64,000 bases of DNA from positions 1-64,000 of IMG/VR virus record IMGVR_UViG_3300037222_000100; one strand, written 5' to 3'. Both the position numbers and the translations under genes were made by a program. This DNA comes from a virus. Positions 4,801 to 38,835 of the stretch are shown one piece after another. Every line of letters starts with the position of its first letter. Within the stretch, counting starts at the first letter, position 1. A model generated the notes under the pieces. The model was not told the origin of the DNA, made no database searches, and saw only the letters and a program-made list of their open reading frames with translations.

Positions 4801-5317
4801 ATGCGTCTCCCCACTCGCCGCTATCCGCCTGCTTAGGGATGCCTCGCTCCAGTGCCGCATTGGCTCGACGTGCGAACGTTTCTGCACGCGGATGATCCGG
4901 ATATGTCTTGATGCGGAAGTCACGATAGAGAGGGCTGTCTGCGCGTGTGTAGATAATCGGCCCTGAGCGATGGCGCTTCTGTTCGGGCTCGAAGTCATAT
5001 GGCTCGTCGTCCTCATCCAACAGACTCGTCTTTGCGGTCGTCGGCTCGTAAGAGTTCTCGTCACCAGTGAGATCGATAACGTACTGCTTGTCCGGAGACA
5101 CCCAAAAGTAGTGACCGTGCTTAGTACCCACAAAGCCACCGAGCTTGTCGGCTAGCCACTGCGACGTGACGAAGCACTGACCGGCACTAGCCTGAGGGTG
5201 TCCCTGGAAGTCAGGATGACGCGTCTCGTCTCCCCAGGCGTGTTCGGCCGCACTACGCAGTTCGTGCAGTTTGTCCTGGGTGATGGTATCGGGATCAAAG
5301 CCCATACTCATTACCAC
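1868..5317 (-). CDS. 1149-aa polyprotein: papain/transglutaminase(YunG)-like N-domain, C2H2 finger, GNAT acetyltransferase, class II CCA-adding enzyme + HD domain
   Basis: GQCFVTS..HYF..IDLT; CSTC..H..H; HNRGVGTALL; VGGAIRDALL..DIDF, RRDFTAN, DEDPTRLVRA; LLHDVGK. Confidence 0.85.
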   Translation of the reverse strand: MVMSMGFDPDTITQDKLHELRSAAEHAWGDETRHPDFQGHPQASAGQCFVTSQWLADKLGGFVGTKHGHYFWVSPDKQYVIDLTGDENSYEPTTAKTSLLDEDDEPYDFEPEQKRHRSGPIIYTRADSPLYRDFRIKTYPDHPRAETFARRANAALERGIPKQADSGEWGDAYPGEEPQANQDFENRYFHDTRSDLELSMEKPNEKEYKFFYGNGQLHVSPMHSHDELRDHSGTPANHEGPMAVGYVTVRGRDALWSVEGNIALRGLVKELQDYGKRVGWTWGGLVDGSGQPIHDDFGAKKSYWYTTKGGLKLSEAPFRGSKGRIVVEGKMAKIQGKLNPAARAGLEEWADDFGLRLAEYPGGTDMNDRMKNKEWTEEYDKGNPEAEPQKAFDGEPQGELTCSTCGVVLPNFRQYVLHNKQHDPLDAAPAYLDDGHFPTLNDKDDVLPLRLRNSEPTAQPLASFREASTVEDFDLYSKLWGYNRDEGYVFYGGYLDGQIVGYGVVRPGEDEAEVVMVHSAVHNRGVGTALLQRMLLHYPNAYTHADSPEGERLVRRMGMVNTSGHRYVTAAGGKEPKDLLEAPLPFVYDIDKDYITVGHPGMKTSDIMGQFTPGGIVEGYYEPGGKIVINTTTTMPYSTYHMMQLWYWSHPHMEITSLELENQQGKAQKLATADVGSYVKTLTAADGAAWNAFQALRKAGGHVYVVGGAIRDALLQKEPRDIDFMVSGLPAEQVENVLDKLPGSVNWEGKRFGTYKYRTKGQEVEIALPRTDTYEEGGRRGQGKITVDHNLPVEKDLARRDFTANSMAVDLETGRLVDPYGGAKDIESHTLRTTHPDSFDEDPTRLVRALVAASRHGLVPDERTRKEMEEHAYRLDNESPDALKQQLDKLLASPNPAGALRLAQETGVLHHMFPELANNFDYDQRNPHHNYSLGEHSLNVLDNVSHLTDDPEVRLAALLHDVGKPASSWVDPATEVTHYYPGMIDGQPVGADHAKVGADIAEQRLRETYNYPVSKIRNVHNLISHHMYPDFSSPKGARRFLNRVGDSADDLMTLREADIAGKGAENKRNQATVDQQRELVEQARQAGAPTTQSMISVNGSDLLVLGLKGPQIGTVLRQLTNDVVENPALNERPALLQRATEYAQAQPNT

Positions 5318-26299: not shown

Positions 26300-26360
26300 T
26301 TAGATGGGTCCCGTTCCATGATGTCACCCATTATGGGAGAGGTCGCGCCCGGATTGTTAG

Positions 26361-26429
26361 TCGCTCCCGCTGGAATCGAACCAGCGCCTAGAGGGTATGA
26401 TCCTCCTTGGCACCCATAGCCTGAGAGCG
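26361..26429 (-). tRNA. tRNA with CAU anticodon (Met or Ile2), short D-arm
   Basis: Cloverleaf, GGTTCGATTCC T-loop, loop AUCAUAC. Confidence 0.7.
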
Positions 26430-26565
26430 TGGCTTTCCCCTACCGCTTGCACGGGATAGCGGGTACTCGTGTAACACGTCATCTACGTGCTCCCTGATCC
26501 GGGGTGCGGCACATAGCAAGGATGACGTGAGTTAGAGCAGCGTCCTCTTGCGAAGGTCTGTTCTC

Positions 26566-26745
26566 CTAACCGTGTTTCTTCTGACCTGGCTCACCAGGTC
26601 CAAGAGGCTTACCAACGCGGGCGCGGTAGCGCTCGCACTTGGTTTTGTTGCGGCCCCACTTACGGTCGCCACCGCTTTTGCGGCGGTTGTTCCTTTTCAT
26701 CAACTTGGCGTGAGTTACGTCAAGCGGGTTTGCCCGATTGGGCAT
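26566..26745 (-). CDS. Highly basic 59-aa protein
   Basis: AAGGAG RBS; MPNRANPLDVTHAKLMKRNNRRKSGGDRKWGRNKTKCERYRARVGK... Confidence 0.6.
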   Translation of the reverse strand: MPNRANPLDVTHAKLMKRNNRRKSGGDRKWGRNKTKCERYRARVGKPLGPGEPGQKKHG

Positions 26746-26809
26746 GTGTATCTCCTTTGGCTAGGGTTACCTAGTCATGGGGATACCTCCTTGCGTTGGT
26801 TGATGTTGA

Positions 26810-26880
26810 AACGGATAGTCGGAATCGAACCGACATCAAGAGCGTGGAAGGCTCTTGTCATACCATTAGACCATACCCGC
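26810..26880 (-). tRNA. tRNA-Gly(TCC)
   Basis: Cloverleaf, loop CUUCCAC. Confidence 0.9.
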
Positions 26881-26962
26881 AGGTGCGCCATATCGTCCTA
26901 TCATCCGTAGGTACGGCACACACCTACGTAGGCTCGTTTTCACCGCATGCTGTTACTCACGA

Positions 26963-27034
26963 AGCCCACTCTCGGAATCGAACCGAGTTCGCCGGTTTAC
27001 AAGACCGGAGCATCACCATTTATGCTTAGCAGGC
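26963..27034 (-). tRNA. tRNA-Thr(TGT)
   Basis: Cloverleaf, loop CUUGUAA. Confidence 0.9.
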
Positions 27035-27038
27035 GAAT

Positions 27039-27423
27039 TGTATCGATAAGCCGGATTCTGTCATTGGACGATCATCCATCTCAGCCTTAGCTGCCGCCTC
27101 ACAACTGCGGTTCCCCAACCCGATATGACCGTAGGCTTTCCAACCCCTTCAATAGGTGGCCCGTTTTGCGGTATAGCCCTTGCGGACAACAAGCCTGCTC
27201 ATCGCAGACACGGCTTTCGCCATCAGGGGTACCACCGCCCTTAGGTTTCTCTGTATGGGTTTCATCCTCGACGCTTTGCGTGCGGTACAAACGCCTCTCG
27301 GCTCCCGCCTCTTTTCGCGATGTCTGTTGATCGCGGCTTCCTCAGCCGCAGACCGAGTTTCCTCGGCCAGGATGTCCGGACTTTCCTCTGGAGGGATCGG
27401 ACCTCCAGCGACCGTCTGATACA
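27039..27423 (-). ncRNA. rnpB: RNase P RNA (phage-encoded, atypical)
   Basis: CR-I GAGGAAAGUCCGG, CR-IV AGAUGGAUGA, CR-V ACAGAAUCCGGCUUA, terminal helix UGUAUC/GAUACA, P3 hairpin CUGGAGG/CCUCCAG. Confidence 0.9.
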
Positions 27424-27424
27424 G

Positions 27425-27494
27425 AGCGGTAGATGGGACTCGAACCCACAACCTCCACCATGGCTATAGTGGGTACCTCGCCTGAGGCTACCGC
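27425..27494 (-). ncRNA. tRNA-like RNA (Gly-like acceptor) with abnormal anticodon loop
   Basis: GCGGUAG/CUACCGC acceptor, canonical T-arm, minimal D-arm, stem CCACUAU/AUGGUGG closing AGCC. Confidence 0.65.
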
Positions 27495-27599
27495 TGTTCC
27501 TACTGAATGTTCACGCACTGCCCAGGATGACCTCCGCCTGGAACCGCTCGTTGTTCTGCTTCGCACGCACGACGCTTAGCCCCTATGTCGGGTTGCCCT

Positions 27600-28259
27600 T
27601 CAGGCGTATTCGGCGGTTCGGCGGTTTCCGGCGTCACCTGTGATTCCCTCGGATTTACGGCTAAAGCGACCTTCCTTCCAATCGTTCAAAAGGGTGTACT
27701 CGTAACTCGTGATGTCTCCGTGGGCGATCAGGTCGAAGAGGACGGGCCTCTCCTCCTTCAAGCTTGCAACAAGGTGCTCTGCAATGTCCCTCTCGGCCTC
27801 CGTGAGGTAAGGCGCAATGGATTTGCCATTGCCGCCATCTCGTTTGTGCAGGTCCCGATGCCAACCGACGCAGGCGGGGATCGTGCAGAACGACCGAGGC
27901 GCGTAGCTGATGTAGTCTGGAAGCTCCAGCATCAGCCAGCGAGGAACGAAGTGGTGTCGTGTAATGCGGCCGTCGCACTCGCCCTCCTCGCCGTGGTAGC
28001 GACAGATAGGAGAATGCTGCGTGCCAAGTACGCGTTCCTTCTTGGCCTCGATCACATCATGCGGGATCAGCCCACTGCTGTGATTGAGGCGGTACAGGAC
28101 CGCTTTCGTGGAGAGGCGTTCATCGAGTAGATCATCGATGTCCGCGTCCTCGACCTCCGCGACGAGTTCTAGCTGCTCGACCGTAGCTTCGCCGTCATAC
28201 GAGTCGAACCAGTAGACCTGTCCCGTGACGGGATGGGTCCAATCTCGTGCTCGCGACAT
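27600..28259 (-). CDS. HNH-like endonuclease
   Basis: CRYH..CDGRITRHHFVP..TIPACVGWHRDLH; ATG just after TATACT. Confidence 0.6.
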   Translation of the reverse strand: MSRARDWTHPVTGQVYWFDSYDGEATVEQLELVAEVEDADIDDLLDERLSTKAVLYRLNHSSGLIPHDVIEAKKERVLGTQHSPICRYHGEEGECDGRITRHHFVPRWLMLELPDYISYAPRSFCTIPACVGWHRDLHKRDGGNGKSIAPYLTEAERDIAEHLVASLKEERPVLFDLIAHGDITSYEYTLLNDWKEGRFSRKSEGITGDAGNRRTAEYA

Positions 28260-28285
28260 GCCTACAGTATACAGCACACGTCAAG

Positions 28286-28357
28286 TAGCCCGACAGGGAG
28301 TCGAACCCTGGTTACGGCGCTGAGAACGCCGCGTTCTAACCGCTGAACTACCGGGCC
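28286..28357 (-). tRNA. tRNA-Glu(CTC)
   Basis: Cloverleaf, loop UUCUCAG. Confidence 0.9.
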
Positions 28358-28493
28358 ATACAGGGGAGCGCTCTACTGCTGACGCTACACGCCACAAGCA
28401 TCGCTGATCGGGCGATCCTTTCTTTCGTCGTAGTACTCCGACTTCAGACTTCGGTGACATGACAGGAATTGCACCTGCGACCTCTCCCCGTAA
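28358..28493 (-). ncRNA. Circularly permuted tRNA-like RNA
   Basis: Order: GGGAG, T-arm, 3' acceptor CAUGUCAC, ~58-nt insert, 5' acceptor GUGGCGUG, D-arm, CUCCC. Confidence 0.7.
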
Positions 28494-28502
28494 GGAGTGA
28501 AG

Positions 28503-28575
28503 TAGTCCCTCTCGGATTCGAACCGAGAACCAACCGCTCATAAGACGGGTGCTCTAACCATTGAGCTAAAGGACC
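28503..28575 (-). tRNA. tRNA-Ile(TAT)
   Basis: Cloverleaf, loop CUUAUGA. Confidence 0.85.
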
Positions 28576-28603
28576 ATATGGGCCTCTCGCGAGGCCCAAG
28601 GGG

Positions 28604-28972
28604 TCAAAGATGCGATACCGCCTTTGGAGCAATTTCAGCCAAGGCCGGTGTTTGTGTTGTTTCGTTGTGCGTTGTCGTCCCACAGTCAATTTTGCTGACC
28701 CCGTAGTAGGGACGTTCGCCGTACCATGGTTCGCGATATGGTCGCGGATATGGTACTGGGTATGGGAGAGGATACGGTCGTGGAACCGAGATGGGCTGAT
28801 TCGCCAGTTCCTTCTTTAGGAGCCGAATGCAGTCCACCGTGGTCGGATTCCGACCGTGCCCTTTCCAGTCGAGCCCGCAGAGCGAGCAGACCGTCGATAC
28901 TGCGACGGGTTCAGGTTTGGTTGCTTTCTTTTGCGTTGCCATGATTGGTGACGAGTCCCTTTGACACTTCAC
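28604..28972 (-). CDS. Hypothetical protein with PYP repeats (start uncertain)
   Basis: CSLC; PRPYPLPYPVPYPRPY. Confidence 0.5.
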   Translation of the reverse strand: MKCQRDSSPIMATQKKATKPEPVAVSTVCSLCGLDWKGHGRNPTTVDCIRLLKKELANQPISVPRPYPLPYPVPYPRPYREPWYGERPYYGVSKIDCGTTTHNETTQTPALAEIAPKAVSHL

Positions 28973-29168
28973 CGCGATTTTCTCGTTTCTCGGTCATGCC
29001 GCCCCAAACACGTCCACGGGCAGAGTCGAGCACATGGCCCGCCTGCGTCGTACTCATGTTGAGCGCGTGACTGATCTGCGGGACGGTACTGCCCTCAAAG
29101 TACATCTTGAAGGCATCGTATTCGCTCGCGTTGAGACAATACACCGATTCGATGTCTCGCCTCGCCAT
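28911..29168 (-). CDS. Sigma-70 region 4-like HTH protein
   Basis: LNASEYDAFKMYFEGSTVPQISHALNMS; AGGAGGG RBS. Confidence 0.6.
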   Translation of the reverse strand: MARRDIESVYCLNASEYDAFKMYFEGSTVPQISHALNMSTTQAGHVLDSARGRVWGGMTEKRENRGEVSKGLVTNHGNAKESNQT

Positions 29169-29205
29169 TTCACCCTCCTTTAGGATGTTGGTTTTGGTAA
29201 TGCAG

Positions 29206-29278
29206 GGTGGCCGGAGGGAATCGAACCCTCATCGCGTGGATCACAACCACGAGTTCTAACCGTTGAACTACGGTCACC
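29206..29278 (-). tRNA. tRNA-His(GTG)
   Basis: Cloverleaf with G-1:C73. Confidence 0.9.
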
Positions 29279-29282
29279 ATGA

Positions 29283-29360
29283 TGCGCCGAGGGGTTTAGG
29301 TCCTTCCCCATCCGGGATTCGATGTACCCGTGCTCTTGAACCCGGTTGAGCTACCGACGC
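29283..29360 (-). ncRNA. Degenerate tRNA-like RNA
   Basis: Acceptor and D-arm present; enlarged anticodon loop; non-canonical T-loop. Confidence 0.5.
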
Positions 29361-29362
29361 GA

Positions 29363-29437
29363 TGCCCCCTCTGGAAGTCGAATCCAGACTATGGACGGGT
29401 TTAGACCGTATCCCTCTGCCAATTGGGGTAAGGGGGC
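29363..29437 (-). tRNA. tRNA-Leu(TAA), short variable arm, C33
   Basis: Leu-type D-arm; loop UCUAAAC. Confidence 0.75.
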
Positions 29438-29546
29438 GTAAACCCTGCCGACTTGCCATTACTTGTCGCGCCCTGACGGGCGCAGTACAGTGGTTGGTTC
29501 ACTACTCGGCTGAACGAGCATCAGCGTCAAGTCGAATCAGGGCTAG

Positions 29547-29617
29547 CTGCGGGTCAGGGATTCGAACCCCGATTGACTGGTTCAAGGCCAGCGGTCCTGC
29601 CGTTGGACGAACCCGCA
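29547..29617 (-). tRNA. tRNA-Gln(TTG), C33
   Basis: Loop CCUUGAA. Confidence 0.85.
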
Positions 29618-29776
29618 AAGGATCGTTGCATCTGCGGATTCTTGACACGTAGAAGCTCCTCAGTCAGCATCCGCACAATACTGTATTTGTACCGATGGAC
29701 AGCGGTTTCACGTTCTTGCACGATCCGCTCGTGCCTCTTCTTGGTGATGAACCACATGGGTCCAGTATAGCGAAAG

Positions 29777-29848
29777 CTGCGGGACAAGGATTCGAACCTC
29801 GATCCTCTGGCTCAGAACCAGATCACTTGCCGTTAGTACGATCCCGCA
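29777..29848 (-). tRNA. tRNA-Gln(CTG)
   Basis: Loop UUCUGAG. Confidence 0.9.
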
Positions 29849-29882
29849 ATGCGGCCCGGAAAGAATCTCCGGGCCAATTCTG

Positions 29883-29969
29883 TTACGACGTGAGACGCTC
29901 GACCGTCCAAGAGACTAGACCGGCGCTGAGCCAAGCGAGAACGCTACCGCCGCCTATGGTTACTGCCAT
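29883..29969 (-). CDS. 28-aa hydrophobic peptide
   Basis: GAGGGGGTG RBS; MAVTIGGGSVLAWLSAGLVSWTVERLTS; downstream hairpin. Confidence 0.5.
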   Translation of the reverse strand: MAVTIGGGSVLAWLSAGLVSWTVERLTS

Positions 29970-29989
29970 GTTTCACCCCCTCAAAGGGA

Positions 29990-30062
29990 TAGCAGTCCCC
30001 GGATTCGAACACGGGCTCTCAAGGTTATGGGCCTTGAATGGTCACCAGACCACCTGACTGCA
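29990..30062 (-). tRNA. tRNA-Met(CAT), initiator-like 1:72 mismatch, C33
   Basis: U1/U72 mismatch; loop CCCAUAA. Confidence 0.75.
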
Positions 30063-30064
30063 AG

Positions 30065-30138
30065 TACTCTCCCTCGGATTCGAACCGAGACTGGACCGGG
30101 CTTGAACCGGCTTCCTCTACCAATTGGGATAGGAGAGC
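30065..30138 (-). tRNA. tRNA-Leu(CAA), short variable arm
   Basis: Loop UUCAAGC. Confidence 0.85.
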
Positions 30139-30147
30139 ATATACGAA

Positions 30148-30187
30148 GTGATTATGCTAACCTCACACATGCGCGAGGCGTAAATTT
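30148..30187 (-). promoter_or_regulatory. Internal promoter/operator copy 1
   Basis: AAATTT..GCCTCGCGcATG..GAGG..cATAATCAC, similar to 35992-36033. Confidence 0.5.
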
Positions 30188-30260
30188 CCGGAGGAAGCAA
30201 CCGCTTTCGGTAGAGGCCCTAGGGGGTCCCCTCCAAATTTTTTGGCTACGATCAGCCGAG

Positions 30261-30335
30261 TCCTGTCGGGAGGATTTGAACCTCCGACTCCTCGCGTATC
30301 AGACGAGTGCTCTAACCAGACTGAGCTACGACAGG
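30261..30335 (-). tRNA. tRNA-Ile(GAT)
   Basis: Loop CUGAUAC. Confidence 0.9.
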
Positions 30336-30407
30336 TAGTTTGGGACTCCGCCGCGTCACTTCGGCAGTTTCTAGCACCGGGGCTTAGTCCGGGTCCCGAG
30401 AGTGCAG

Positions 30408-30475
30408 AGCCGACGCAGGAATCGAACCTGCCGGACCCCGGTGCATGCACCTAGTCTGGACCCCAGTCGTCGCAC
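30408..30475 (-). ncRNA. tRNA-like RNA lacking an anticodon loop
   Basis: Canonical T-arm GCAGGUUCGAUUCCUGC; palindromic GGUGCAUGCACC in place of the anticodon arm. Confidence 0.5.
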
Positions 30476-30482
30476 TACACAG

Positions 30483-30556
30483 CGGACCCAGGCGGAATCG
30501 AACCGCCGACACCTGCCTTTTCAGGGCAGTGCTCTACCTGACTGAGCTACAGGTCC
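30483..30556 (-). tRNA. tRNA-Phe(GAA)
   Basis: Loop CUGAAAA. Confidence 0.9.
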
Positions 30557-30823
30557 CTACTTTTGCCCGGCCAAGATGTCTTCGACCTGATCGAGCACCT
30601 TGGGCATGGACTCCTCTACTTCGCAGTCGATGCACTTCTTGCTGCCTCTGATTGCACGCTTCACGCAATGAGGTTCCTCACAAAGGATTCTCGTGGGCCG
30701 CATGAACTCTGGAATGTCGAAGTCTTCTTGCATCTTCATCTTTCGTCGTCTCAGGCCCGCCAGCAGAACGATGATCGCGCCTCCAGCGAGGAGGTTCTTC
30801 TGCTCTTGGTACATGCCACCCAT
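30557..30823 (-). CDS. Small Cys-rich protein (start uncertain)
   Basis: CEEPHC..CIDC; TGCTATCAT upstream. Confidence 0.45.
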   Translation of the reverse strand: MGGMYQEQKNLLAGGAIIVLLAGLRRRKMKMQEDFDIPEFMRPTRILCEEPHCVKRAIRGSKKCIDCEVEESMPKVLDQVEDILAGQK

Positions 30824-30849
30824 TAGGCGACGGATGATAGCACTTTCAG

Positions 30850-30934
30850 CGGAGGGACAAGGAATCGAACCCTCAGGACGCAAGCCCTGGCCTAGTTTTC
30901 AAGACTAGTTGCCGACCATTCAGCGCGGCCCTCC
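30850..30934 (-). tRNA. tRNA-Ser(TGA)
   Basis: Long variable arm; loop CUUGAAA. Confidence 0.9.
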
Positions 30935-30986
30935 AGGAGCGGACCGCCCCGAGAGCCATTTCAGGCCGGGAGACGCTACCGCTCTA

Positions 30987-31057
30987 AGGCGTCGTCCGGA
31001 TTCGAACCGGAGTGAGTCGGGTTGCAGCCAACTGCGTAGCCTCTCCGCCACGACGCC
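30987..31057 (-). tRNA. tRNA-Cys(GCA)
   Basis: Loop CUGCAAC; U73. Confidence 0.9.
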
Positions 31058-31063
31058 AATGTA

Positions 31064-31429
31064 CTACAGCACTACAAGACCTTCTTCGACCTCGGTGTGA
31101 CAGTTGCCGCAGAGAAGAGCACACTTCGCGGCCTCTGCCTGAACCGTCTTCCAGGCGCGAGTAAATCCCTTGGCCGCAATGCCAAAGGACTTCGTGGTCG
31201 GATCGAGATGATGAAATTGAAGAGCACCTTCGCACCGATCATACCCACACACTTCACATCGACCACCATGTTCTGCGACTAATTTCCGCTTGATCTCGCG
31301 TCGCTTCTCAGCGATGCGGTCGCTCTCGCACGGACGACAACGCCAACTGTTAGCGGCGTCAGGTCGCCTCCAATGAGACACGTCGCCGTGCCTCTTGCAG
31401 GTCTTGATCTGTTGCTCCACCTGTGGCAT
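31064..31429 (-). CDS. HNH endonuclease
   Basis: CEVCGY..LQFHHLDP..KCALLCGNCH. Confidence 0.85.
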   Translation of the reverse strand: MPQVEQQIKTCKRHGDVSHWRRPDAANSWRCRPCESDRIAEKRREIKRKLVAEHGGRCEVCGYDRCEGALQFHHLDPTTKSFGIAAKGFTRAWKTVQAEAAKCALLCGNCHTEVEEGLVVL

Positions 31430-31457
31430 TATACCATGGTGTACGCCAGACTTGTAG

Positions 31458-31532
31458 CTCACGGCGCTGGAATCGAACCAGCCTCATACTCGGGTAACAG
31501 CCGAGCGCATTCGCCTTGATTGCTAGCCGTGA
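31458..31532 (-). tRNA. tRNA-Asn(GTT)
   Basis: Loop CUGUUAC. Confidence 0.85.
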
Positions 31533-31545
31533 ATGCAGAGGAAGA

Positions 31546-31764
31546 TCACTCTTCCTCGTCCAGCTTGATGCAATTTGCGCAGTTACACAGCGCGGGCCGA
31601 CCTACTCCTCGCTCGCCTTCATGCGTCAGGCTATGGAGAGGGGCTGACCTACGAGTTCCTCGCTTGGGATGGATGCTCTTGATGCGCTCGTTGAGCACGG
31701 GGCATCGATAGAGATGCCCCTGTCCCGATGGGTACGACTTGTGACAGTACGAGCACCAATCCAT
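31546..31764 (-). CDS. Small Cys/His-rich protein
   Basis: CSYC..H..C, CNCANC; leaderless after TATCCT. Confidence 0.5.
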   Translation of the reverse strand: MDWCSYCHKSYPSGQGHLYRCPVLNERIKSIHPKRGTRRSAPLHSLTHEGERGVGRPALCNCANCIKLDEEE

Positions 31765-31788
31765 GTGGATAGGATATCAGAAATGAAG

Positions 31789-31873
31789 CGGAAGGTGTGG
31801 GATTCGAACCCACGGTGGCTTTCACCACGCCGAGTTAGCAACCCGGTACATTCGGCCTCTCTGCCAACCTTCC
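31789..31873 (-). tRNA. tRNA-Ser(GCT)
   Basis: Long variable arm; loop UUGCUAA. Confidence 0.9.
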
Positions 31874-32000
31874 AAATGGTGGACGTGCCCGGACCAGAGG
31901 CCCGAAAACTTTTGCCCTTTCGTGCTGGTATGTTCGTCACATTCAGCCGGGTTACCATACCAGTGGTACCCAACCTGATTCAGGGCATTCTGTACGTCCA

Positions 32001-32073
32001 AGCCCTTGGCGGGATTCGAACCCGCGCAAACCCGCTTAGGAACCGGGCACTCTGTCCGCTGAGTTACAAGGGC
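32001..32073 (-). tRNA. tRNA-Arg(CCT)
   Basis: Loop UUCCUAA. Confidence 0.85.
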
Positions 32074-32084
32074 GTACTACGAAG

Positions 32085-32490
32085 TGGACCCTGTGGGAAT
32101 CGAACCCACGTCTCCGGCATTCGTATTGCGTTACTATCTAGCAGCTTTGGGACAGGCTTGGCCCGTCTCCACCACTCGGTTTACGTCCGAGAACGGCACC
32201 GGGCCGAAGCCCGACTGATGCACCACCTGGTTTGAGTCCAGGAACTTGTCGCGGGGTGCTACCAACCGTTTTCTGTTCCGAGGCGTACGGTGACCCGGCT
32301 CTGACTAAACCAGAGCGAGAGTTGCCTCGCGAGCCGAGAGCGACGGGGAGTGCCCCGGTACGGGGTCTTCCATGAAGCTCGCGGGGATCGCGAGGGTGTC
32401 TGTGTTGCCTGTTATGGCTTGTGTCAGGTAGGTGTGACGACCGCTGCGTAACAACAACCGAGTCTTACCAGATCGATACCTGTAAGGCCC
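32085..32490 (-). ncRNA. ssrA: tmRNA
   Basis: GGGCCUU/AGGGUCC-A acceptor with G3:U, T-arm GUGGGUUCGAUUCCCAC, AUAACA before resume codon, tag ORF 32409-32305. Confidence 0.9.
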
Positions 32491-32629
32491 ATGCGGGGGC
32501 GAGGCTAGATAGCACCCCGCCCGCCGATGCTACTCGACTAACTGGGTACTGCCTGGATCACCCCCTGTAAGTTGAAGGACAAGGTAACCTCAGATGGCCC
32601 GTCTAGAAAGGGCGAAGTCAGCTACCTAG

Positions 32630-32701
32630 TAGACGATACTGGATTCGAACCAGTGACTTCCACGTTGTCACCGTGGCGCTCTCCCACTGAGCTAATCGTC
32701 T
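32630..32701 (-). tRNA. tRNA-Val(GAC)
   Basis: Loop GUGACAA. Confidence 0.9.
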
Positions 32702-32771
32702 AGGCTGCCCGTTGCCACTGGTAGTCTAGTCCAGATGCCGGGCTCTCCACAGGCATTCAACCTGGGAGCAG

Positions 32772-32842
32772 TACTCGGTGAAGGAATCGAACCTTCGTCG
32801 TCACGGTGTAAACGTGATGCTAAACCACTCAGCTAACCGAGC
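32772..32842 (-). tRNA. tRNA-Val(TAC)
   Basis: Loop UUUACAC. Confidence 0.9.
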
Positions 32843-32898
32843 ATGTGCCCGCCCACAGAGGGACAGGCATCGCACGCCGGGCGAACCCTAAACGTGAG

Positions 32899-32972
32899 CG
32901 GGACCTACCGGACTCGAACCGGCGACCTCTGCCGTGACAGGGCAGCGCTCTAACCAACTGAGCTAAGGACCC
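32899..32972 (-). tRNA. tRNA-Asp(GTC)
   Basis: Loop CUGUCAC. Confidence 0.9.
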
Positions 32973-33050
32973 AAGGGTGCCCCTGCGGGAGTCATCGTAT
33001 TGGGGATGACGGGCAGGGGACTTGTATGCAATTGGCCGATCTAGTCGGCA

Positions 33051-33117
33051 GCGGGGCGAGAAGGAATCGAACCCTCGCCTGCGGGTTTGGAATCCGCAGG
33101 TCCATCCAGGCGTCCCG
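33051..33117 (-). tRNA. tRNA-Trp(CCA), degenerate D-arm
   Basis: Loop UUCCAAA; T-arm intact; imperfect acceptor. Confidence 0.55.
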
Positions 33118-33124
33118 ATTACTT

Positions 33125-33526
33125 TTACTGCGCAATCCCGCAAGCGGTCTTGATTTCGTCAATGATGTTCAGTGGAACGTGAGAAATCTGTTCAAATTCT
33201 GTAGCCGTGTAGAGAGCGGTAAGATGTTCCGTGGAACAGATGGCCTGCTGTTCAGTAAGAATGGGGGTCTTTTCCTTTTCGATCTTCCTCCGAAGTTCAA
33301 GGCTTCGTGTCGAAGACCAGGAACCTTCCTTACCAAGAAATCCTTCGCCTTGCTTAGGATGGGGTACGGCTACAGCTTCCTTCTGAAGTTCCTTTGAGGC
33401 GTGCGTCAAGCCACTCGTAAGTGCATTGACTACACGTTCCCGCTCAACTTCGTATCCAGCGAAGAAGCCAATACCACCTGCGACTAGCACTGCTACGACG
33501 ATGAGGAGCTTCGCTTTGGTTGTCAT
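33125..33526 (-). CDS. Membrane-anchored protein
   Basis: N-terminal TM; TTGACA-17-TAGACT promoter, leaderless. Confidence 0.7.
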   Translation of the reverse strand: MTTKAKLLIVVAVLVAGGIGFFAGYEVERERVVNALTSGLTHASKELQKEAVAVPHPKQGEGFLGKEGSWSSTRSLELRRKIEKEKTPILTEQQAICSTEHLTALYTATEFEQISHVPLNIIDEIKTACGIAQ

Positions 33527-33562
33527 GCCCGTAGTCTACCGAACCACCGCTTGCTTGTCAAG

Positions 33563-33631
33563 CGGGAGATCGAGGAATCGAACCCCGTCCTAGAGTTTTG
33601 GAGGCTCCTTGGCTGCCATAGCCTATCTCCC
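33563..33631 (-). tRNA. tRNA-Trp(CCA), short D-arm
   Basis: Loop CUCCAAA. Confidence 0.8.
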
Positions 33632-33952
33632 TCGTTGATACGTGCGCTCCCTGTGACAATTGGCGCAGACGACTTCGCACTTGGCGATCTCTGCCTTGAT
33701 TGTATCCCATGCCGCTGCAATCTTGGCAAAGCGGCTAACCTCACATCTCTTCTCTCCGCGTACATGATCGAACTCCATCACGTAGTAGGGGTAGGCCACC
33801 TTGCAATCAGCACATGGGCGATCCTTGGCCTCACGGATGAGACGCTTCTGAGCCTCTATTCTGACCCTTTTACGGGCCAGAAGAACTTCACGATTGTCTT
33901 TCTGGTACTGACGTTGATACTCGATCTTGGCTGTGCCTTCAAGCGCCATCAT
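33623..33952 (-). CDS. HNH endonuclease
   Basis: CADC..MEFDHVRGEK..KCEVVCANCHRERT. Confidence 0.85.
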   Translation of the reverse strand: MMALEGTAKIEYQRQYQKDNREVLLARKRVRIEAQKRLIREAKDRPCADCKVAYPYYVMEFDHVRGEKRCEVSRFAKIAAAWDTIKAEIAKCEVVCANCHRERTYQRGR

Positions 33953-34071
33953 CAGTTATGTAGGAGAAGGTCATGGTTTTATTTGGTCACCATGACCTTC
34001 ACCCCAAGAGGCCGGAGTCTGACGAAGTACTCGCGGGGTGATCAACTCCCCGACCGCTCCTCGTCCGGCCA

Positions 34072-34143
34072 AGCCAACACTCGGAGTCGAACCGAGTTCT
34101 CTCGCTTACGAAACGAGTGCATCACCAAGAATGCTTTGCTGGC
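34072..34143 (-). tRNA. tRNA-Thr(CGT)
   Basis: Loop UUCGUAA. Confidence 0.9.
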
Positions 34144-34265
34144 ATAGAACACAAGAGAGTGGCCCGGCAAACCCTGGTGACGGCGAAGGGGAGAACACCA
34201 CATTCACCCTTGAACTTCGACCGCAATGGTGTCCACGACATCTACTGGCGGACCTCCTGTGTTCA

Positions 34266-34337
34266 AGCCCACGTCGGGAATCGAACCCGAACCTCATCCT
34301 TACCATGGACGCATGCTACCTTTAGCACCACGCGGGC
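34266..34337 (-). tRNA. tRNA-Thr(GGT)
   Basis: Loop AUGGUAA. Confidence 0.85.
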
Positions 34338-34343
34338 ATCAAA

Positions 34344-34391
34344 GACCCGGCCGCATACCCCAGGTACCTGGGACAGAGGCGGGACCGGGCC
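34344..34391. repeat. ~49-nt hairpin repeat, copy 1
   Basis: GACCCGGCCGCATAC..CAGAGGCGGGACCGGGCC shared with 36038-36086. Confidence 0.8.
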
Positions 34392-34567
34392 GTACAACAG
34401 TCCTGTCCATGAGCCCTACGGCTGACGACAGGAGCGCTCCGTCCGCGATCCCTCTACCGGGGGCCGACCGAGCAATAGGCAAGGAGTAACCCGCCCTGAG
34501 GACGCTAGCGAGGTTAGATCGCGTCCACCACAGGGCTCACGCCTCGTGTTTCGTGTGTCACTCCTAG

Positions 34568-34641
34568 TCAGGATAGGAGGATTTGAACCTCCGCCCTCTT
34601 CGTTCCGAACGAAGCGCGCTACCAAGCTGCGCCATACCCTG
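34568..34641 (-). tRNA. tRNA-Pro(CGG)
   Basis: Loop UUCGGAA. Confidence 0.9.
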
Positions 34642-34787
34642 TAGATGCCGCATCGGGTAGACAGGTCCTTGCAGAATCCGCCTACGGCCTGGTGGCCGTG
34701 CGCAACTCATTCGGGACCCGTTACTTTCGATGTCCTCCGGGTCATGAGTCCCGTTGGATACGTCCCTCGCGATGGGATTTCCGACAG

Positions 34788-34882
34788 TGCGCAAGACGGG
34801 ATTCGAACCCGCATTCGCTGGTGTGAAAAACCAGTGCTGTGGAGACTGTTTGACGGCCTCTCTACCGTTCAGCTACTCACGC
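34788..34882 (-). tRNA. tRNA-Glu(TTC) with extra hairpin in D-loop
   Basis: Loop UUUUCAC; ~22-nt insert inside D-loop. Confidence 0.75.
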
Positions 34883-34945
34883 ATGTGCTGAGCCAGGCTT
34901 GGCCTCAGCGTGGATGGACATTTGAGTCTGCCATCGATCAGACTA

Positions 34946-35017
34946 TCGGGAATGCAGGAGTTGAACCTGCGCTAGAGCGTTCCAAACGCCCGGTGCGGCC
35001 ACCAACACTTATCCCCG
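34946..35017 (-). tRNA. tRNA-Pro(TGG)
   Basis: Loop UUUGGAA. Confidence 0.85.
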
Positions 35018-35060
35018 TAGTCGGCACGGGTTACCATGCCGAGGTCATACCGGTTGCTAC

Positions 35061-35363
35061 TTATTCGACAGGCGGCTCGACCGGCGCTGGCGGAGTTACT
35101 GCATCGTCAAGTGCAGTCGTGTTCGCCTCAACCTGAGATGTGCTTGCCGTGACCGTCGTCGTAGCCGCATCGACTGCGGCCTGAGTTGGGTCGTTCGTGA
35201 TCTTGTCAACGGCTGCGGTGACGGCCGTCGTGTTAGCCGCTACAGCGGCTTCGTTGGCGGCAACTGCCGCCGTGAGTGCATCGGTGTTTGCCACTAGCTT
35301 CCTCTGTTCTCGTAGTAGTTGCTCCAAAATCTCATGCTGAGATTTATGGCGTCTGTATTCCAA
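35061..35363 (-). CDS. Ala/Thr-rich coiled-coil protein (start uncertain)
   Basis: AAGGAGGG before TTG; heptad A-V-A-A-N repeats. Confidence 0.5.
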   Translation of the reverse strand: MEYRRHKSQHEILEQLLREQRKLVANTDALTAAVAANEAAVAANTTAVTAAVDKITNDPTQAAVDAATTTVTASTSQVEANTTALDDAVTPPAPVEPPVE

Positions 35364-35389
35364 TAGACCCTCCTTGATTGGATGGGCAG

Positions 35390-35462
35390 TGGACCTGGAG
35401 GGACTTGAACCCTCTACCTCCTGCTTGCAAGGCAGGCGCTCTCCCAGATGAGCTACAGGCCC
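35390..35462 (-). tRNA. tRNA-Ala(TGC)
   Basis: G3:U70; loop CUUGCAA. Confidence 0.9.
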
Positions 35463-35512
35463 ATACGGCACCCCTGTTCTGAGCCTTTATCTCTCAGCCA
35501 GGTGATGCCAAA

Positions 35513-35584
35513 TGCCCCCGTGGAGAATCGAACTCCAGCATCCGGGGTAAAAGCCCGGCGGTCTACCACTAACCATACGGAGGC
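35513..35584 (-). tRNA. tRNA-Lys(TTT)
   Basis: Loop CUUUUAC. Confidence 0.9.
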
Positions 35585-35693
35585 GAAGGCCCAGACCAGA
35601 GCGTAGACGCTTCAATGCTTTCGGCTCCACGTCTACGGTTAGCCTGGGGTGCTGCATCATACTCGTGTGTCGTTTGCCGGAGTCATGTCCGGA

Positions 35694-35768
35694 TGCGGCC
35701 CGTGGGACTCGAACCCACAAGCGACACGTTCTAAGCGTGCCAGGTATACCAATTCCCGTCAGAGCCGC
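35694..35768 (-). tRNA. tRNA-Leu(TAG), short variable arm
   Basis: Loop CUUAGAA. Confidence 0.85.
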
Positions 35769-35906
35769 GTGTCCTCCTGCTCTCGATGCTAGGAGGGGTA
35801 CTCTTCTGTATTCATTCTTCGACATCGAGAGCGTGCCGTCCCATCAACTCCCTGATTGGGTGGGCTAGGGAGGCCATCGGTCTTACACCCTAAAGACGAT
35901 TCTTGA

Positions 35907-35989
35907 TGCGCAGGGAGGGAGTCGAACCCTCACGAGCTTTCGCCCACCACGTCCTCAACGTGGCGTGTCTACCATTCCACCACCAGCGC
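35907..35989 (-). tRNA. tRNA-Leu(GAG)
   Basis: Long variable arm; loop UUGAGGA. Confidence 0.9.
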
Positions 35990-35991
35990 GG

Positions 35992-36033
35992 GTGATTATC
36001 ATAATGCCTCGCATACGCGAGGGCAAAATTTTT
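35992..36033 (-). promoter_or_regulatory. Internal promoter/operator copy 2
   Basis: TTGCCC-17-TATGAT with CCTCGC/GCGAGG inverted repeat in spacer. Confidence 0.55.
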
Positions 36034-36037
36034 CAAG

Positions 36038-36086
36038 GACCCGGCCGCATACTCTGTCCATGGACGAGCAGAGGCGGGACCGGGCC
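36038..36086. repeat. ~49-nt hairpin repeat, copy 2
   Basis: See 34344-34391. Confidence 0.8.
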
Positions 36087-36093
36087 ACTACAG

Positions 36094-36171
36094 TGCCAGC
36101 GGAAGGAATCGAACCTTCTTGCCGAGGCCACGGGTTTACAATCCGCTATCACTCCATGTGATCTCGCTGGC
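36094..36171 (-). tRNA. tRNA-Tyr(GTA)
   Basis: Loop UUGUAAA; variable arm. Confidence 0.8.
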
Positions 36172-36367
36172 ATGCTAGTTGGGTCCTTGATCTCCGGGCG
36201 CGATCCGACGAGCAACTTGATCCCACGCCACTACGCGTTTCGGGATCATGCGGTATGGTTACCGCTGCACTCAAGGGGTTTGCCCCAACTTGGAAGGCGT
36301 TGAATATGTACGGTGCCTTCTGTGCCGTTCGACGGGGACTATAGCAGATGCTCTGCTTCCCGTCTAG

Positions 36368-36440
36368 AGCCCCGTTCGGGAGTCGAACCCGATGATCGCG
36401 CTTTAGAAGAGCGCTGCCTTTTCCGTTTGGCTTACGAGGC
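36368..36440 (-). tRNA. tRNA-Arg(TCT)
   Basis: Loop CUUCUAA. Confidence 0.9.
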
Positions 36441-36608: not shown

Positions 36609-36638
36609 ATTCTAGCACGGGGTCCCCCTTAGTTTCAA
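36609..36638 (-). promoter_or_regulatory. Sigma-A-type promoter heading the RNA operon
   Basis: TTGAAA-18-TAGAAT with extended TG. Confidence 0.65.
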
Positions 36639-36690: not shown

Positions 36691-36879
36691 TCAGCCCTCG
36701 GCCCAATATCTCACGTAGCGCTCGCGAAGCTCCCCCTCGGAACGCACGTCCTGATACCCGGTGGCCTCATCGATCAGAGCGTCCATCCCGACCTTGGCTT
36801 GGGCCATTAGCTCGCGACGATTTGATGGCTCGCACCACTCGCAGTCGCAGCATTCTTCATGGGGCAGTGGCTCAGGCAC
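36691..36879 (-). CDS. Small protein with P63C-like ALIDEATGYQ motif
   Basis: CCDCEWC; GMDALIDEATGYQDVR. Confidence 0.45.
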   Translation of the reverse strand: MPEPLPHEECCDCEWCEPSNRRELMAQAKVGMDALIDEATGYQDVRSEGELRERYVRYWAEG

Positions 36880-37594
36880 CGTGCTCCTTACCCTTGTCGT
36901 CGCCCTTGATCGTCGCCTTGAAGAGGGAGTTGCTGTGCTTGTGGTAGAGGACGACACCCTCCGGGTCCATGAAGCCCGGTGCTGCTCGCGACCCATCATC
37001 CTCCAAGGATGCGAGCGCTCCGATCACCGCATCCACCGCGAAGGTATCAGCTTCCGCCAGAACGGGCACAACATGACAACACTTTGGTCGAGGATTGACG
37101 ATCACCGTCTCGCCAAATCCGTTCGCCTCCTCGTACTCGCCCCACCGGGAGACGTTGAAGAGGCTAAAGCGCTTCTCGTCCAAGCCATATTTGCGCTGGA
37201 TGCCAGAGCCCCACCACTCACCGAAGTGAACGCCGACTCCGAGGCCAGCCGCTAGCTTGTGTGCGTTCTCGCGGACCCACTTGGCAAAGCCGAAGTTGTC
37301 CTGCTCCGGGCTGATGACTTGCTTGCGCGACTGCGCGTAGACATACACGGGGTCCCATCCATCGAAATGTCCTTCGAAGGGGGCCTTGTTCACGACGATG
37401 CCAGGACCGACGATCTCGTCCGCACCGTAGCCGTACAGAGATGTCTCGCTGACAACGACCGCCGAGTTGGTGCCGTCGATCTTCTCCGTGATCACGATGG
37501 GACGGAAGAGCCTGCTGATCTTCGGGAACTCAGTGAAGGATGCCTCCGGAACGAAAGACTCCTCCGGGACGCGCACATGTGCCAGTCCGGTCAT
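36872..37594 (-). CDS. RNA ligase (Rnl2-like adenylyltransferase domain)
   Basis: TEKIDGTN motif I, QSRK, FGEWWG, LFN, PEGVV, FKATIK. Confidence 0.8.
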   Translation of the reverse strand: MTGLAHVRVPEESFVPEASFTEFPKISRLFRPIVITEKIDGTNSAVVVSETSLYGYGADEIVGPGIVVNKAPFEGHFDGWDPVYVYAQSRKQVISPEQDNFGFAKWVRENAHKLAAGLGVGVHFGEWWGSGIQRKYGLDEKRFSLFNVSRWGEYEEANGFGETVIVNPRPKCCHVVPVLAEADTFAVDAVIGALASLEDDGSRAAPGFMDPEGVVLYHKHSNSLFKATIKGDDKGKEHGA

Positions 37595-38112
37595 TCGCCT
37601 GCCTCCCAGGTCACGCCACACATACCCTCCTCGTCCTCAATCTGGAGGGTGTCGAGCAGAAGCCACTCAACTGCGATGCTTGCGGGCGTGACACAACTCT
37701 CTTCCTTCATGCGCTCCAGAACATCCTCTGGCGTTGGGTGCGCAGGTCCATCGCCTTCCGGCCAGATGTCATCCTCGCTCAGGACCACGGCCGGAAACTT
37801 GATCGCGAAGGTCCGTTCGTCAGGTACCCGACCCTCTACGCCCCGCGTCTCTAGCATGTCACGAAACGCTGCGACATGATCGGTGCTCTGATGGAGTCCG
37901 AAGGTATCCTCATCCTCCCCAAGCCCGATAGTCACCCGAGAGGGATCAGCGAGACGTTCAGTTGCCGTGATCAGCTTAGCCAGCACCGGACTGAGCTTCT
38001 TGATTCCCTCGTTCAGGAATCGACCGGCCTCCGGCTCGCATGACTCGCGCAACCTTGTGCGTGCCTCTCGCGCAAGCGCGAGGACATCGCCTCCTGCATC
38101 TTCGAGTGACAT
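37591..38112 (-). CDS. Hypothetical protein
   Basis: Operon packing. Confidence 0.55.
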   Translation of the reverse strand: MSLEDAGGDVLALAREARTRLRESCEPEAGRFLNEGIKKLSPVLAKLITATERLADPSRVTIGLGEDEDTFGLHQSTDHVAAFRDMLETRGVEGRVPDERTFAIKFPAVVLSEDDIWPEGDGPAHPTPEDVLERMKEESCVTPASIAVEWLLLDTLQIEDEEGMCGVTWEAGE

Positions 38113-38835
38113 CTACCGAACCTGGTCCACAAAACCAAGCTTGAGAGCGCTGTCGGCGCTCAGCCACCAGTCCTTACGGTTCCAGTTGCGCTTGATGAAT
38201 GCCTTCGTCGTTTTGTTGTTGATCGGCTGCGCACGCTCCGCAAAGATCGACAGGATGCGCTCGTGGAAGATGTCCACCAGCTTGATCCGGTCCTCGACCT
38301 CGCCGTAGGAACCAACGGCTCCGAATGACGCCTCGTGAATCAGGAGGATGGAGTTCTTTCCCATGATGCGGTTGTCCGCAGCCTGGAGGATGACTCCTGC
38401 CATCGATGCCGCCATGCCGAGAGTCACGATGTCGATCTCGTGTCCCTTCTGACGGAGGTCGCTGAGGAAATCGATGAGCGCGAAGCCCTCGACTACATCG
38501 CCTCCGGGAGAGTTGATCTGAATCTCGATGGCACAGCCAGGCGTCTGGCGTGTCCATGCGGTTAGCTGATCGATGCACGCCTTGACTGACGATTCACCGA
38601 CCGGCTGGTCGAACACGTAGACATGGTTGTGCGCGTTCTTTGCAAGCTCATCCTTCTCGACGCGCTGCTTTGCGCGGAGAACGATCTCCTGCTGCTCAGC
38701 CTCGGCTACCTGGACGCGTGTTTCAGCCTCGAAGAGCGTTGCCTGGGACTCTGCCGCCTGGGCCTCGGCCAAGAACTTCTTCTTCTCCTCCGCTGAGGGA
38801 GGACGACTTGTGGATGTTGCGGTGGAGCTTCCCAT
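38113..38835 (-). CDS. clpP: ClpP-like serine protease
   Basis: INSPGG, AASMA (Ser), LIHE (His), KDWWLSA..ALKLGFVD (Asp). Confidence 0.85.
   Translation of the reverse strand: MGSSTATSTSRPPSAEEKKKFLAEAQAAESQATLFEAETRVQVAEAEQQEIVLRAKQRVEKDELAKNAHNHVYVFDQPVGESSVKACIDQLTAWTRQTPGCAIEIQINSPGGDVVEGFALIDFLSDLRQKGHEIDIVTLGMAASMAGVILQAADNRIMGKNSILLIHEASFGAVGSYGEVEDRIKLVDIFHERILSIFAERAQPINNKTTKAFIKRNWNRKDWWLSADSALKLGFVDQVR

Follow-up and report, generated by a model that had tools for sequence, protein, structure and literature searches.

A phage-encoded RNase P RNA homologue with a predicted tetraloop-receptor clamp, embedded in a tRNA array

RNase P RNA is usually regarded as a strictly cellular housekeeping ribozyme. 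In type B RNAs, a GAAA loop and an 11-nt receptor are used as the L12-P10.1 pair. The bacterial RNAs are divided by their peripheral helices, with P6, P16 and P17 marking type A, P5.1, P10.1, P15.1 and P15.2 marking type B, and P6, P16, P17, P10.1 and P15.2 marking type C (PMC7191817). P6 in type A and the L5.1-L15.1 contact in type B are the hallmark struts of the C-domain, and the contact between L8 and P4 has been called universally conserved (PMC5066622). CR-II and CR-III, which contact the D and T loops of tRNA, have also been described as universal (PMC4919922). In the phage RNA described here, CR-II/III were missing and no counterpart of the L8-P4 contact could be assigned. Reviews of large phages name tRNAs, tmRNA, CCA-adding enzymes and ligases, and RNase P is missing from their lists; no description of a phage RNase P RNA was found in the literature (most subscription papers being outside the coverage), the sole viral precedent located there being an RNA of camelpox virus.

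An RNase P RNA homologue among phage tRNA genes

The stretch of DNA analysed (the window; 64,000 nt) covers the opening 64 kb of a virus record that is 167,869 bases long and is rated complete, and the phage genome encodes a portal, terminase, tail fibre, ribonucleotide reductase and DNA polymerase. The terminase showed 33% identity to those of Rhodococcus phage E3 and cluster C mycobacteriophages and 47% identity to that of a provirus in Ca. Solirubrobacter pratensis, and on the basis of these relatives the host is a probable member of the Thermoleophilia. In five related loci (L081, L082, L085, L065 and L083) the terminase matches span 2.6-2.9 kb as compared to 2.1 kb, which suggests an intein or intron.

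A sequence-only reading of the window had proposed a phage-encoded RNase P RNA, and the motifs it named were found on the minus strand at 27039-27423, where a permissive Rfam scan returned an RF00010 match of 46.2 bits (E 4.4e-13; model positions 1-367 at 27031-27427), the sole such match in the phage genome. As this score falls under the RF00010 gathering cut-off of 100 bits, a routine Rfam scan reports tRNAs only. Of the two bacterial models that the reading had named, bact_a (RF00010) thus gave a significant match, although under the cut-off, and bact_b (RF00011, class B) gave none to the window RNA at E<=1. A blastn search of the RNA against 50,697 GenBank phages also returned no match. 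All 80 pairs of the model built for the window RNA are standard pairs, and the P4 strands, P1, P2, P3 and a 6-bp helix closing a 100-nt specificity region, each of which had been named from the letters, form within it. Because thermodynamic folding reached only z -1.86, weak evidence taken alone, support for the fold rests on covariation. Two ORFs overlapping the RNA, 27149-27451 (minus) and 27180-27419 (plus), were rejected as genes because the differences between orthologues consisted of many non-triplet indels and pair-preserving changes. A search with the neighbouring ORF at 27600-28277 returned no loci.

Orthologues were collected by terminase and motif searches. Ten relatives (L064, L067, L068, L070, L080, L084, L085, L103, L147 and L006) have an RNase P RNA at the corresponding site, where tRNA-Gly(GCC) or some other tRNA-like gene immediately precedes it and tRNA-Thr(UGU) follows. 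The window RNA nests with those of L080 and L103 (99/99 support) on a long branch. The RNA was present in every tRNA-rich relative with the locus covered, and searches of two near-complete relatives that possess 0 and 3 tRNAs did not reveal it; its presence tracks tRNA number among the relatives. Across nine aligned RNAs, 93.4% of cells were paired and 24 of 48 pairs had changed on both sides (counts from a MAFFT alignment, in which the 3' arm of the window RNA is misaligned, with anchor-based pairing). None of 500 shuffles scored as high, in a test uncorrected for kinship and with the structure derived from the same sequences, and slid controls paired 24-43%. P4 is formed by strands that lie 200-400 nt apart; in the 11 RNAs, 87 of its 88 cells were paired and the bulged U was always kept, and double-sided changes were seen at five of its eight pairs. 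P2 was 100% paired in the nine aligned RNAs. The covariation among phage homologues by which the proposal could be judged was strong, P4 included. With its homology, conserved fold and position established, the window RNA is almost certainly an RNase P RNA homologue under selection.

As had also been stated, this homologue sits among its own presumed substrates, an array of 32 tRNA genes (Table 1). None of these encodes CCA. The 3' ends of 20 read N73-C74-U75 (P about 3e-16) and the other 12 have U74, so that a pyrimidine occupies position 74 in 32 of 32; the bias recurs in related phages. The decayed tRNA-Gly(GCC) bordering the RNA folds with a perfect acceptor stem and T arm, a U discriminator, a 4-bp mini D hairpin and an enlarged anticodon loop with GCC; an intact tRNA-Gly(GCC) occupies the corresponding slot in L064, L068, L103 and L006, and no second tRNA-Gly(GCC) was present in the phage genome. 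Searches revealed no rnpA in this genome or in 11 related records, and neither an RNase Z-type lactamase fold nor WhiB in the phage genome. The Solirubrobacter genome contains rnpA and a canonical type A rnpB (246.6 bits), and the tmRNA of its provirus has a long tag of 27 residues. Genes for an RNA ligase (PF09414) and a ClpP-like protein lie immediately upstream of the array (36872-38835, minus strand), and a 95-nt tRNA with an insertion (34788-34882, minus strand) was detected by Rfam and missed by ARAGORN.

Table 1. Positions of the RNase P RNA, its structural elements and its surroundings in the window
Feature	Position	Strand	Remarks
1149-aa protein	1868-5317	-	GNAT domain fused to CCA-adding-type nucleotidyltransferase head, RNA-binding and HD domains
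Co-oriented array of 32 ARAGORN tRNA genes plus divergent tmRNA	26360-36440	-	RNase P RNA near array end
tRNA-Thr(UGU)	26963-27034	-	begins 4 nt past P1
RNase P RNA gene, P1 to P1	27039-27423	-	385 nt; RF00010, 10 syntenic orthologues, covariation
3' core	27048-27082	-	CR-IV 27074-27082; P2 3' strand; CR-V 27056-27066; P4 3' strand 27048-27055
Two hairpins after P15	27094-27110, 27083-27092	-	one C between; P15.1/P15.2-like, or P18 plus extra helix
L15 GGU	27118-27120	-	putative pairing site for pre-tRNA 3' end; 11/11 RNAs
11-nt receptor, 3' strand UACGG	27129-27133	-	only bulged third position varies
Multi-hairpin insertion, P17 tip	27137-27236	-	100 nt; unique to this genome; relatives 2-4 nt
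11-nt tetraloop receptor, 5' strand CCUAAG	27240-27245	-	in P16/P17; seven syntenic RNAs and L246
J5/15 (AAA) and 3-bp P15 5' strand	27257-27262	-	P15 3' strand 27114-27116; type B look-alike
Remodelled P10-P12 arm	27270-27324	-	conserved asymmetric loop, GA 27303-27304 opposite 7-nt strand 27286-27292
Second specificity-domain hairpin, P8- or P9-like	27333-27349	-	loop unconserved; variable sequence in close relatives
7-bp hairpin, GAAA loop 27358-27361	27351-27368	-	directly after P5; P5.1-like or P8 position; proposed clamp donor
P5 fused with 2-bp P7 remnant, 5' strand	27369-27374	-	3' strand 27263-27268; 65/66 cells paired, compensatory changes
CR-I and P4 5' strand, bulged U at 27380	27375-27387	-	
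P3, 7 bp, 7-nt loop	27388-27408	-	55/55 basal cells paired, 11 RNAs
P1 and P2 5' strands	27417-27423, 27410-27416	-	pair with 27039-27046 and 27067-27073
Decayed tRNA-Gly(GCC)	27425-27494	-	70 nt; ends 1 nt ahead of P1
Divergent tmRNA	32082-32490	-	27.7 bits, E 3.6e-8; missed by ARAGORN and by Rfam cut-off
Promoter-like site ahead of array	36609-36638	-	10/12, extended -10; consensus match only, site counts at shuffle level

Core, predicted clamp and specificity domain

The P4 pseudoknot with CR-I, CR-V and the bulged U was present in full, together with P1, P2, P3, P5 and CR-IV, and the AA of J5/15 was kept in 11 of 11 RNAs. A T-loop-like appearance of the P3 loop was dropped, being conserved in no more than four RNAs. 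The P15.1-like hairpin, the short P18 and the lack of P19 noted from the letters were seen again as two hairpins after P15 and no P19; the two-hairpin fold recurs in all 11 RNAs, with a second helix of 3 bp to over 100 nt, and P19 is present in two relatives. Helices thus exist at P5.1- and P15.1-like positions, which could equally be P8 and P18.

The P6 strand is missing because P5 runs as one 6-bp helix into the 7-bp hairpin: no free J5/7 strand remains, and the best P6 complement is 4 nt and unconserved, as compared to 5-6 nt in the host and several minimal phage RNAs. In the seven syntenic RNAs of one clade this hairpin always has a fully paired stem of 7 bp, five of its pairs having changed on both sides, and an invariant GAAA loop. 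Co-occurring with the loop in eight RNAs, which were collected by synteny or P4 motifs before the receptor strands were located by pattern, is an 11-nt receptor, CCUAAG opposite UANGG, in which the bulge varies (U in five, C, A and G in one each) and all else is constant. The receptor is embedded in a helix whose flanking pairs form and covary (AU, GC, UA), at a distance from P5 fixed at 18-19 nt in the seven syntenic RNAs. In four RNAs whose loop is a pentaloop, GCAAA or GCUAA, the receptor site is occupied by a different internal loop. In L084 (5205-5490, plus strand) 6 nt of the first S-domain hairpin loop complement L17 (shuffle P 0.008), which is a predicted 6-bp kissing-loop version of the same brace. 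The loops at the L5.1 and L15.1 positions hold no conserved type B-like sequence, and the evidence points to P16/17 as the partner. A receptor variant identical to that of the window has been probed, and its variable base was flipped out without loop contact (10.1101/2024.03.11.584472). No receptor was seen in 30 cellular Thermoleophilia RNAs. A scan with the receptor pattern found the same receptor hairpin in a group I intron, and otherwise yielded mostly chance matches and group I introns.

As the seven syntenic GAAA/receptor RNAs belong to one terminase clade, they count as one event. The eighth, that of L246, comes from a contig without a match to the terminase of this phage and groups with the pentaloop RNAs, which implies two changes in an RNA tree that is weak and was built with the trait columns included. 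Taken together, an intramolecular clamp between GAAA loop and receptor is predicted and considered likely. Since P6 and L5.1-L15.1 are the hallmark C-domain struts, this contact would represent a third strut solution. It was also considered that the enzyme is active with its GAAA loop touching P4 or P1, or with docking that joins two molecules. By junction order the hairpin takes the P8 position, the loop of which normally contacts P4 (PMC5066622), and the insertion in the window RNA holds another GAAA hairpin. However, the loop after P5 is the only invariant GAAA loop, its stem length and the P5-receptor distance are fixed, loop type and receptor type switch together, and L084 is predicted to kiss between the same two elements, making such arrangements rather unlikely.

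The specificity domain measures 100 nt in the window RNA and 72-239 nt in its relatives. CR-II/III, which the sequence-only reading could not map with confidence, were indeed absent in canonical form from the window RNA and all 10 orthologues (0/11); each of 30 cellular Thermoleophilia RNAs had both. In ten of the phage RNAs the missing motifs are replaced by an asymmetric loop, GA against a 7-nt strand, between covarying helices, the inner P10/P11 register of the window RNA being uncertain. The 7-nt strand may be a remnant of CR-III, with the CR-II strand reduced to 2 nt. With a partner of only 2 nt, the paired T-loops by which the elbow of tRNA is read cannot be built. The conserved L11/12 loop was compared by eye with a kink-turn, a bulged-G motif and a T-loop, none of which fitted all sequences.

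An insertion of some 130 nt had been placed between the P15 strands. About 135 nt do separate them; only 100 nt are inserted, however, and the rest is the conserved P16/P17 arm with the receptor. The inserted segment lies beyond the receptor, consists of several hairpins (fold z -1.5, insignificant) and had no homologue among the loci fetched. A potential 5-bp pairing of the insertion with the S-domain linker was dropped as expected by chance. Long insertions of the relatives sit in P12, the last hairpin or P19, and the periphery of the RNA can therefore be said to tolerate insertions; that of the window RNA is probably an expansion of this tolerated kind. In the distant orthologues L103 (4360-4813, minus strand) and L085 (573-1060, plus strand), and in L080 and L068, the last hairpin holds long insertions that resemble each other, which suggests module exchange or old inheritance.

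Possible role in tRNA maturation

The preferred reading is that the phage probably encodes a functional RNase P RNA descended from a type A bacterial gene. The RNA would be co-transcribed with the tRNA array and probably excised by tRNA processing: 3' trimming of the decayed tRNA-Gly, which lies one base upstream, would create its 5' end, and RNase P cleavage at +1 of tRNA-Thr its 3' end. Since the tRNA-Gly remnant stops 1 base before P1 and tRNA-Thr starts 4 after, the usual maturation of tRNAs would suffice to set the RNA free. As the phage encodes no RnpA, the RNA would pair up with that of the host, and activity of the two together is considered likely. The intact core centred on P4 would then trim the 5' leaders of phage pre-tRNAs, as extra capacity to, or a stand-in for, the host enzyme, while the GAAA loop, docked in the 11-nt receptor, would replace the P6 pseudoknot that ties the P5 region to P16/P17. 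Because the elbow platform of CR-II/III has been lost, the enzyme would lean more on the acceptor stem, J5/15 and pairing of L15 to the N73-C74-U75 ends of CCA-less precursors, where the L15 GGU could form one Watson-Crick and one wobble pair with C74-U75. The CCA-adding enzyme of the phage would subsequently complete the tRNA 3' ends. The C74-U75 bias may nevertheless be due to 3' processing enzymes rather than L15. Points against the preferred reading are also the Rfam score under the cut-off, the missing CR-II/III and L8-P4 contact, the long branch and lost P15 pair of the window RNA, and the canonical RNase P of the host (Solirubrobacter rnpB).

The host enzyme, the loss of CR-II/III and the inactivity in vitro of the RNase P-like RNA of camelpox virus (PMC3001073) would also suit a poorly or non-catalytic RNA that binds host RnpA or absorbs a host nuclease as a decoy. 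This is unlikely, as every catalytic-core and substrate-contact element is retained with compensatory change across P4, the L15 GGU would be unneeded for protein binding, and C-domains alone can cleave (PMC4919922). Equally improbable is that the main task of the RNA is to cut tRNA-like punctuation elements, thereby freeing the structured RNAs of the array, or to cut host RNAs, with specificity widened by loss of the elbow reader. Consistent with such a task, a decayed tRNA without a normal D arm adjoins the RNA, and the CR-II/III lost here contact the D and T loops (PMC4919922). However, the D and T loops of most array tRNAs are normal, the presence of the RNA tracks tRNA number and there is no evidence for a host target.

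Beyond the preferred reading of a tRNA-trimming enzyme, a wider view is put forward only tentatively, as it appears less probable than its converse. The family would then form a distinct active architectural class with an interchangeable brace (GAAA/11-nt receptor, pentaloop/variant receptor or kissing loop) and a replacement for CR-II/III, tuned to CCA-less N-C-U precursors and tRNA-like signals that lack a D arm, and serving a phage-run RNA punctuation that includes self-release of the ribozyme.

Origin, wider occurrence and relation to known RNase P RNAs

Throughout the phage family P16/P17 are present, P6 and P10.1 are absent, a hairpin follows straight after P5 and two hairpins follow P15. 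The new structural subtype that had been proposed is upheld, in that this architecture fits none of types A, B or C, and the family is most plausibly of type A descent, with convergence on some B-like features. The type B origin suggested for the P15 region, on the other hand, was not sustained. The B-like letters of J5/15 and J15/18 were found in the window RNA only (1/11), with AAA and a 3-bp P15 from which one pair has been lost, the other ten RNAs having CAA or UAA and a 4-bp P15; the window RNA nests with type A-like relatives, has a type A P4 and lacks an RF00011 match. As the motif is private to the window genome and the RNA is nested among type A-like relatives, it would have arisen by a few local changes. 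A true A/B chimera, formed by recombination with a Bacillota type B rnpB, might explain the resemblance of the P15 flanks and the two-hairpin 3' topology to the RF00011 consensus, and the relative L070 scored best with the class B model (38.5 bits). This origin is largely refuted and very improbable, since the window RNA has no class B match and no P10.1, retains P16/P17 and the type A P4, and carries the motif between segments common to its type A-like relatives. A host rnpB fragment misassembled into the contig, or a decaying relic, is refuted by synteny and covariation and can be given practically no credence: in some viral contigs the rnpB match is clearly DNA of the host, but here the same slot, flanked by phage tRNAs, terminase and portal, was found in ten independent assemblies, and the cellular RNAs of Thermoleophilia, in which CR-II/III are present, reach 179-300 bits.

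Scans of viral contigs showed that phage tRNA arrays contain many further RNase P RNAs of different build; carriage of RNase P RNA by phages is thus common, though apparently undescribed. When viral contigs were scanned with a type B-style pattern, 15 loci were returned, and in none of them was the motif pair complete. Further viral RNase P RNAs, several of them minimal with P6 kept, have a shifted P4 sequence with compensatory changes (L186, L195, L199, L208, L212, L215, L216, L221, L230, L232, L236, L244, L253, L265, L281, L288, L292, L297 and L298). High-GC tRNA-rich viral contigs (L001, L002, L009, L018, L042 and L043) carry near-canonical type A RNase P RNAs, possibly newer captures from actinobacterial hosts. 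One Thermoleophilia genome (G133) has two full-score rnpB copies (C2:83564-83907 and C6:107070-107420), attributable to contamination or a provirus. A 23-nt blastn match of the receptor hairpin of a short relative in Microbacterium phage Pumpernickel was rejected as not being an RNase P RNA. The same phage (NC_073468.1, about 82997-83141; L181:1464-1608, plus strand) has an unannotated tRNA-shaped RNA between two tRNA-Pro genes, comprising acceptor and T arms, an 11-nt receptor hairpin at the position of the anticodon arm and, in the variable arm, a helix capped by GAAA. An RNase P RNA of ~270 nt that RF00010 misses (L147:4438-4712, plus strand) lies in the provirus of Ca. Solirubrobacter pratensis URHD0082 (NZ_AUEK01000007.1), and its presence in a sequenced Solirubrobacter strain is a possible experimental handle.

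A selected phage RNase P RNA would complete the picture of phage-run tRNA maturation, and standard Rfam annotation is blind to the family. The family also offers a natural experiment on whether P6 and L5.1-L15.1 are interchangeable struts and on how dispensable CR-II/III are in a bacterial-type enzyme, both structural questions being testable with transcripts of 260-390 nt.

Among described systems, type A (RF00010; E. coli M1 RNA, T. maritima) is the best Rfam match to the phage RNA, sharing P1-P5, the P4 pseudoknot with its bulged U, CR-I/IV/V, J5/15, the L15 internal loop with GGU and the P15-P17 arm. Unlike type A, the phage RNA is viral, lacks P6, canonical CR-II/III, P13 and P14, has P7 reduced and fused to P5, and adds the GAAA/11-nt receptor in P16/17, a helix after P15 and the 100-nt P17 insertion. 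With type B (RF00011; B. subtilis) it shares the absence of P6, a hairpin right after P5 with a C-domain tertiary contact in place of P6 (predicted for the phage RNA), two hairpins after P15, the use of a GAAA/11-nt receptor pair and, in the window RNA only, a 3-bp P15 with A-rich flanks; it differs in keeping P16/P17 and a type A P4, in a contact predicted to be with P16/17 and not L15.1, and in having neither P10.1 nor CR-II/III. Type C (Thermomicrobium; Chloroflexi) provides a precedent for an A/B-intermediate architecture, but keeps P6 and has P10.1, whereas the phage RNA has neither (PMC7191817). Precedents for a reduced specificity domain and sub-threshold Rfam scores are found in type T/P (Pyrobaculum) and in CPR RNAs (PMC4919922, PMC8172020), type T being archaeal and without nearly the whole S-domain; none of type C, type T/P or the CPR RNAs is viral or has been described with a GAAA/receptor clamp. 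The GAAA/11-nt receptor itself is identical in sequence motif to that of Tetrahymena P4-P6 and group I introns, the window variant being the tested U-to-C form of the bulge, and its location is new, in that it lies within P16/17 of RNase P RNA, where it apparently stands in for a pseudoknot. Lastly, the RNase P-like RNA of camelpox virus is likewise virus-encoded and of partial structural likeness but inactive in vitro (PMC3001073); in comparison, the phage RNA retains the complete core, shows covariation and lies among tRNA genes.
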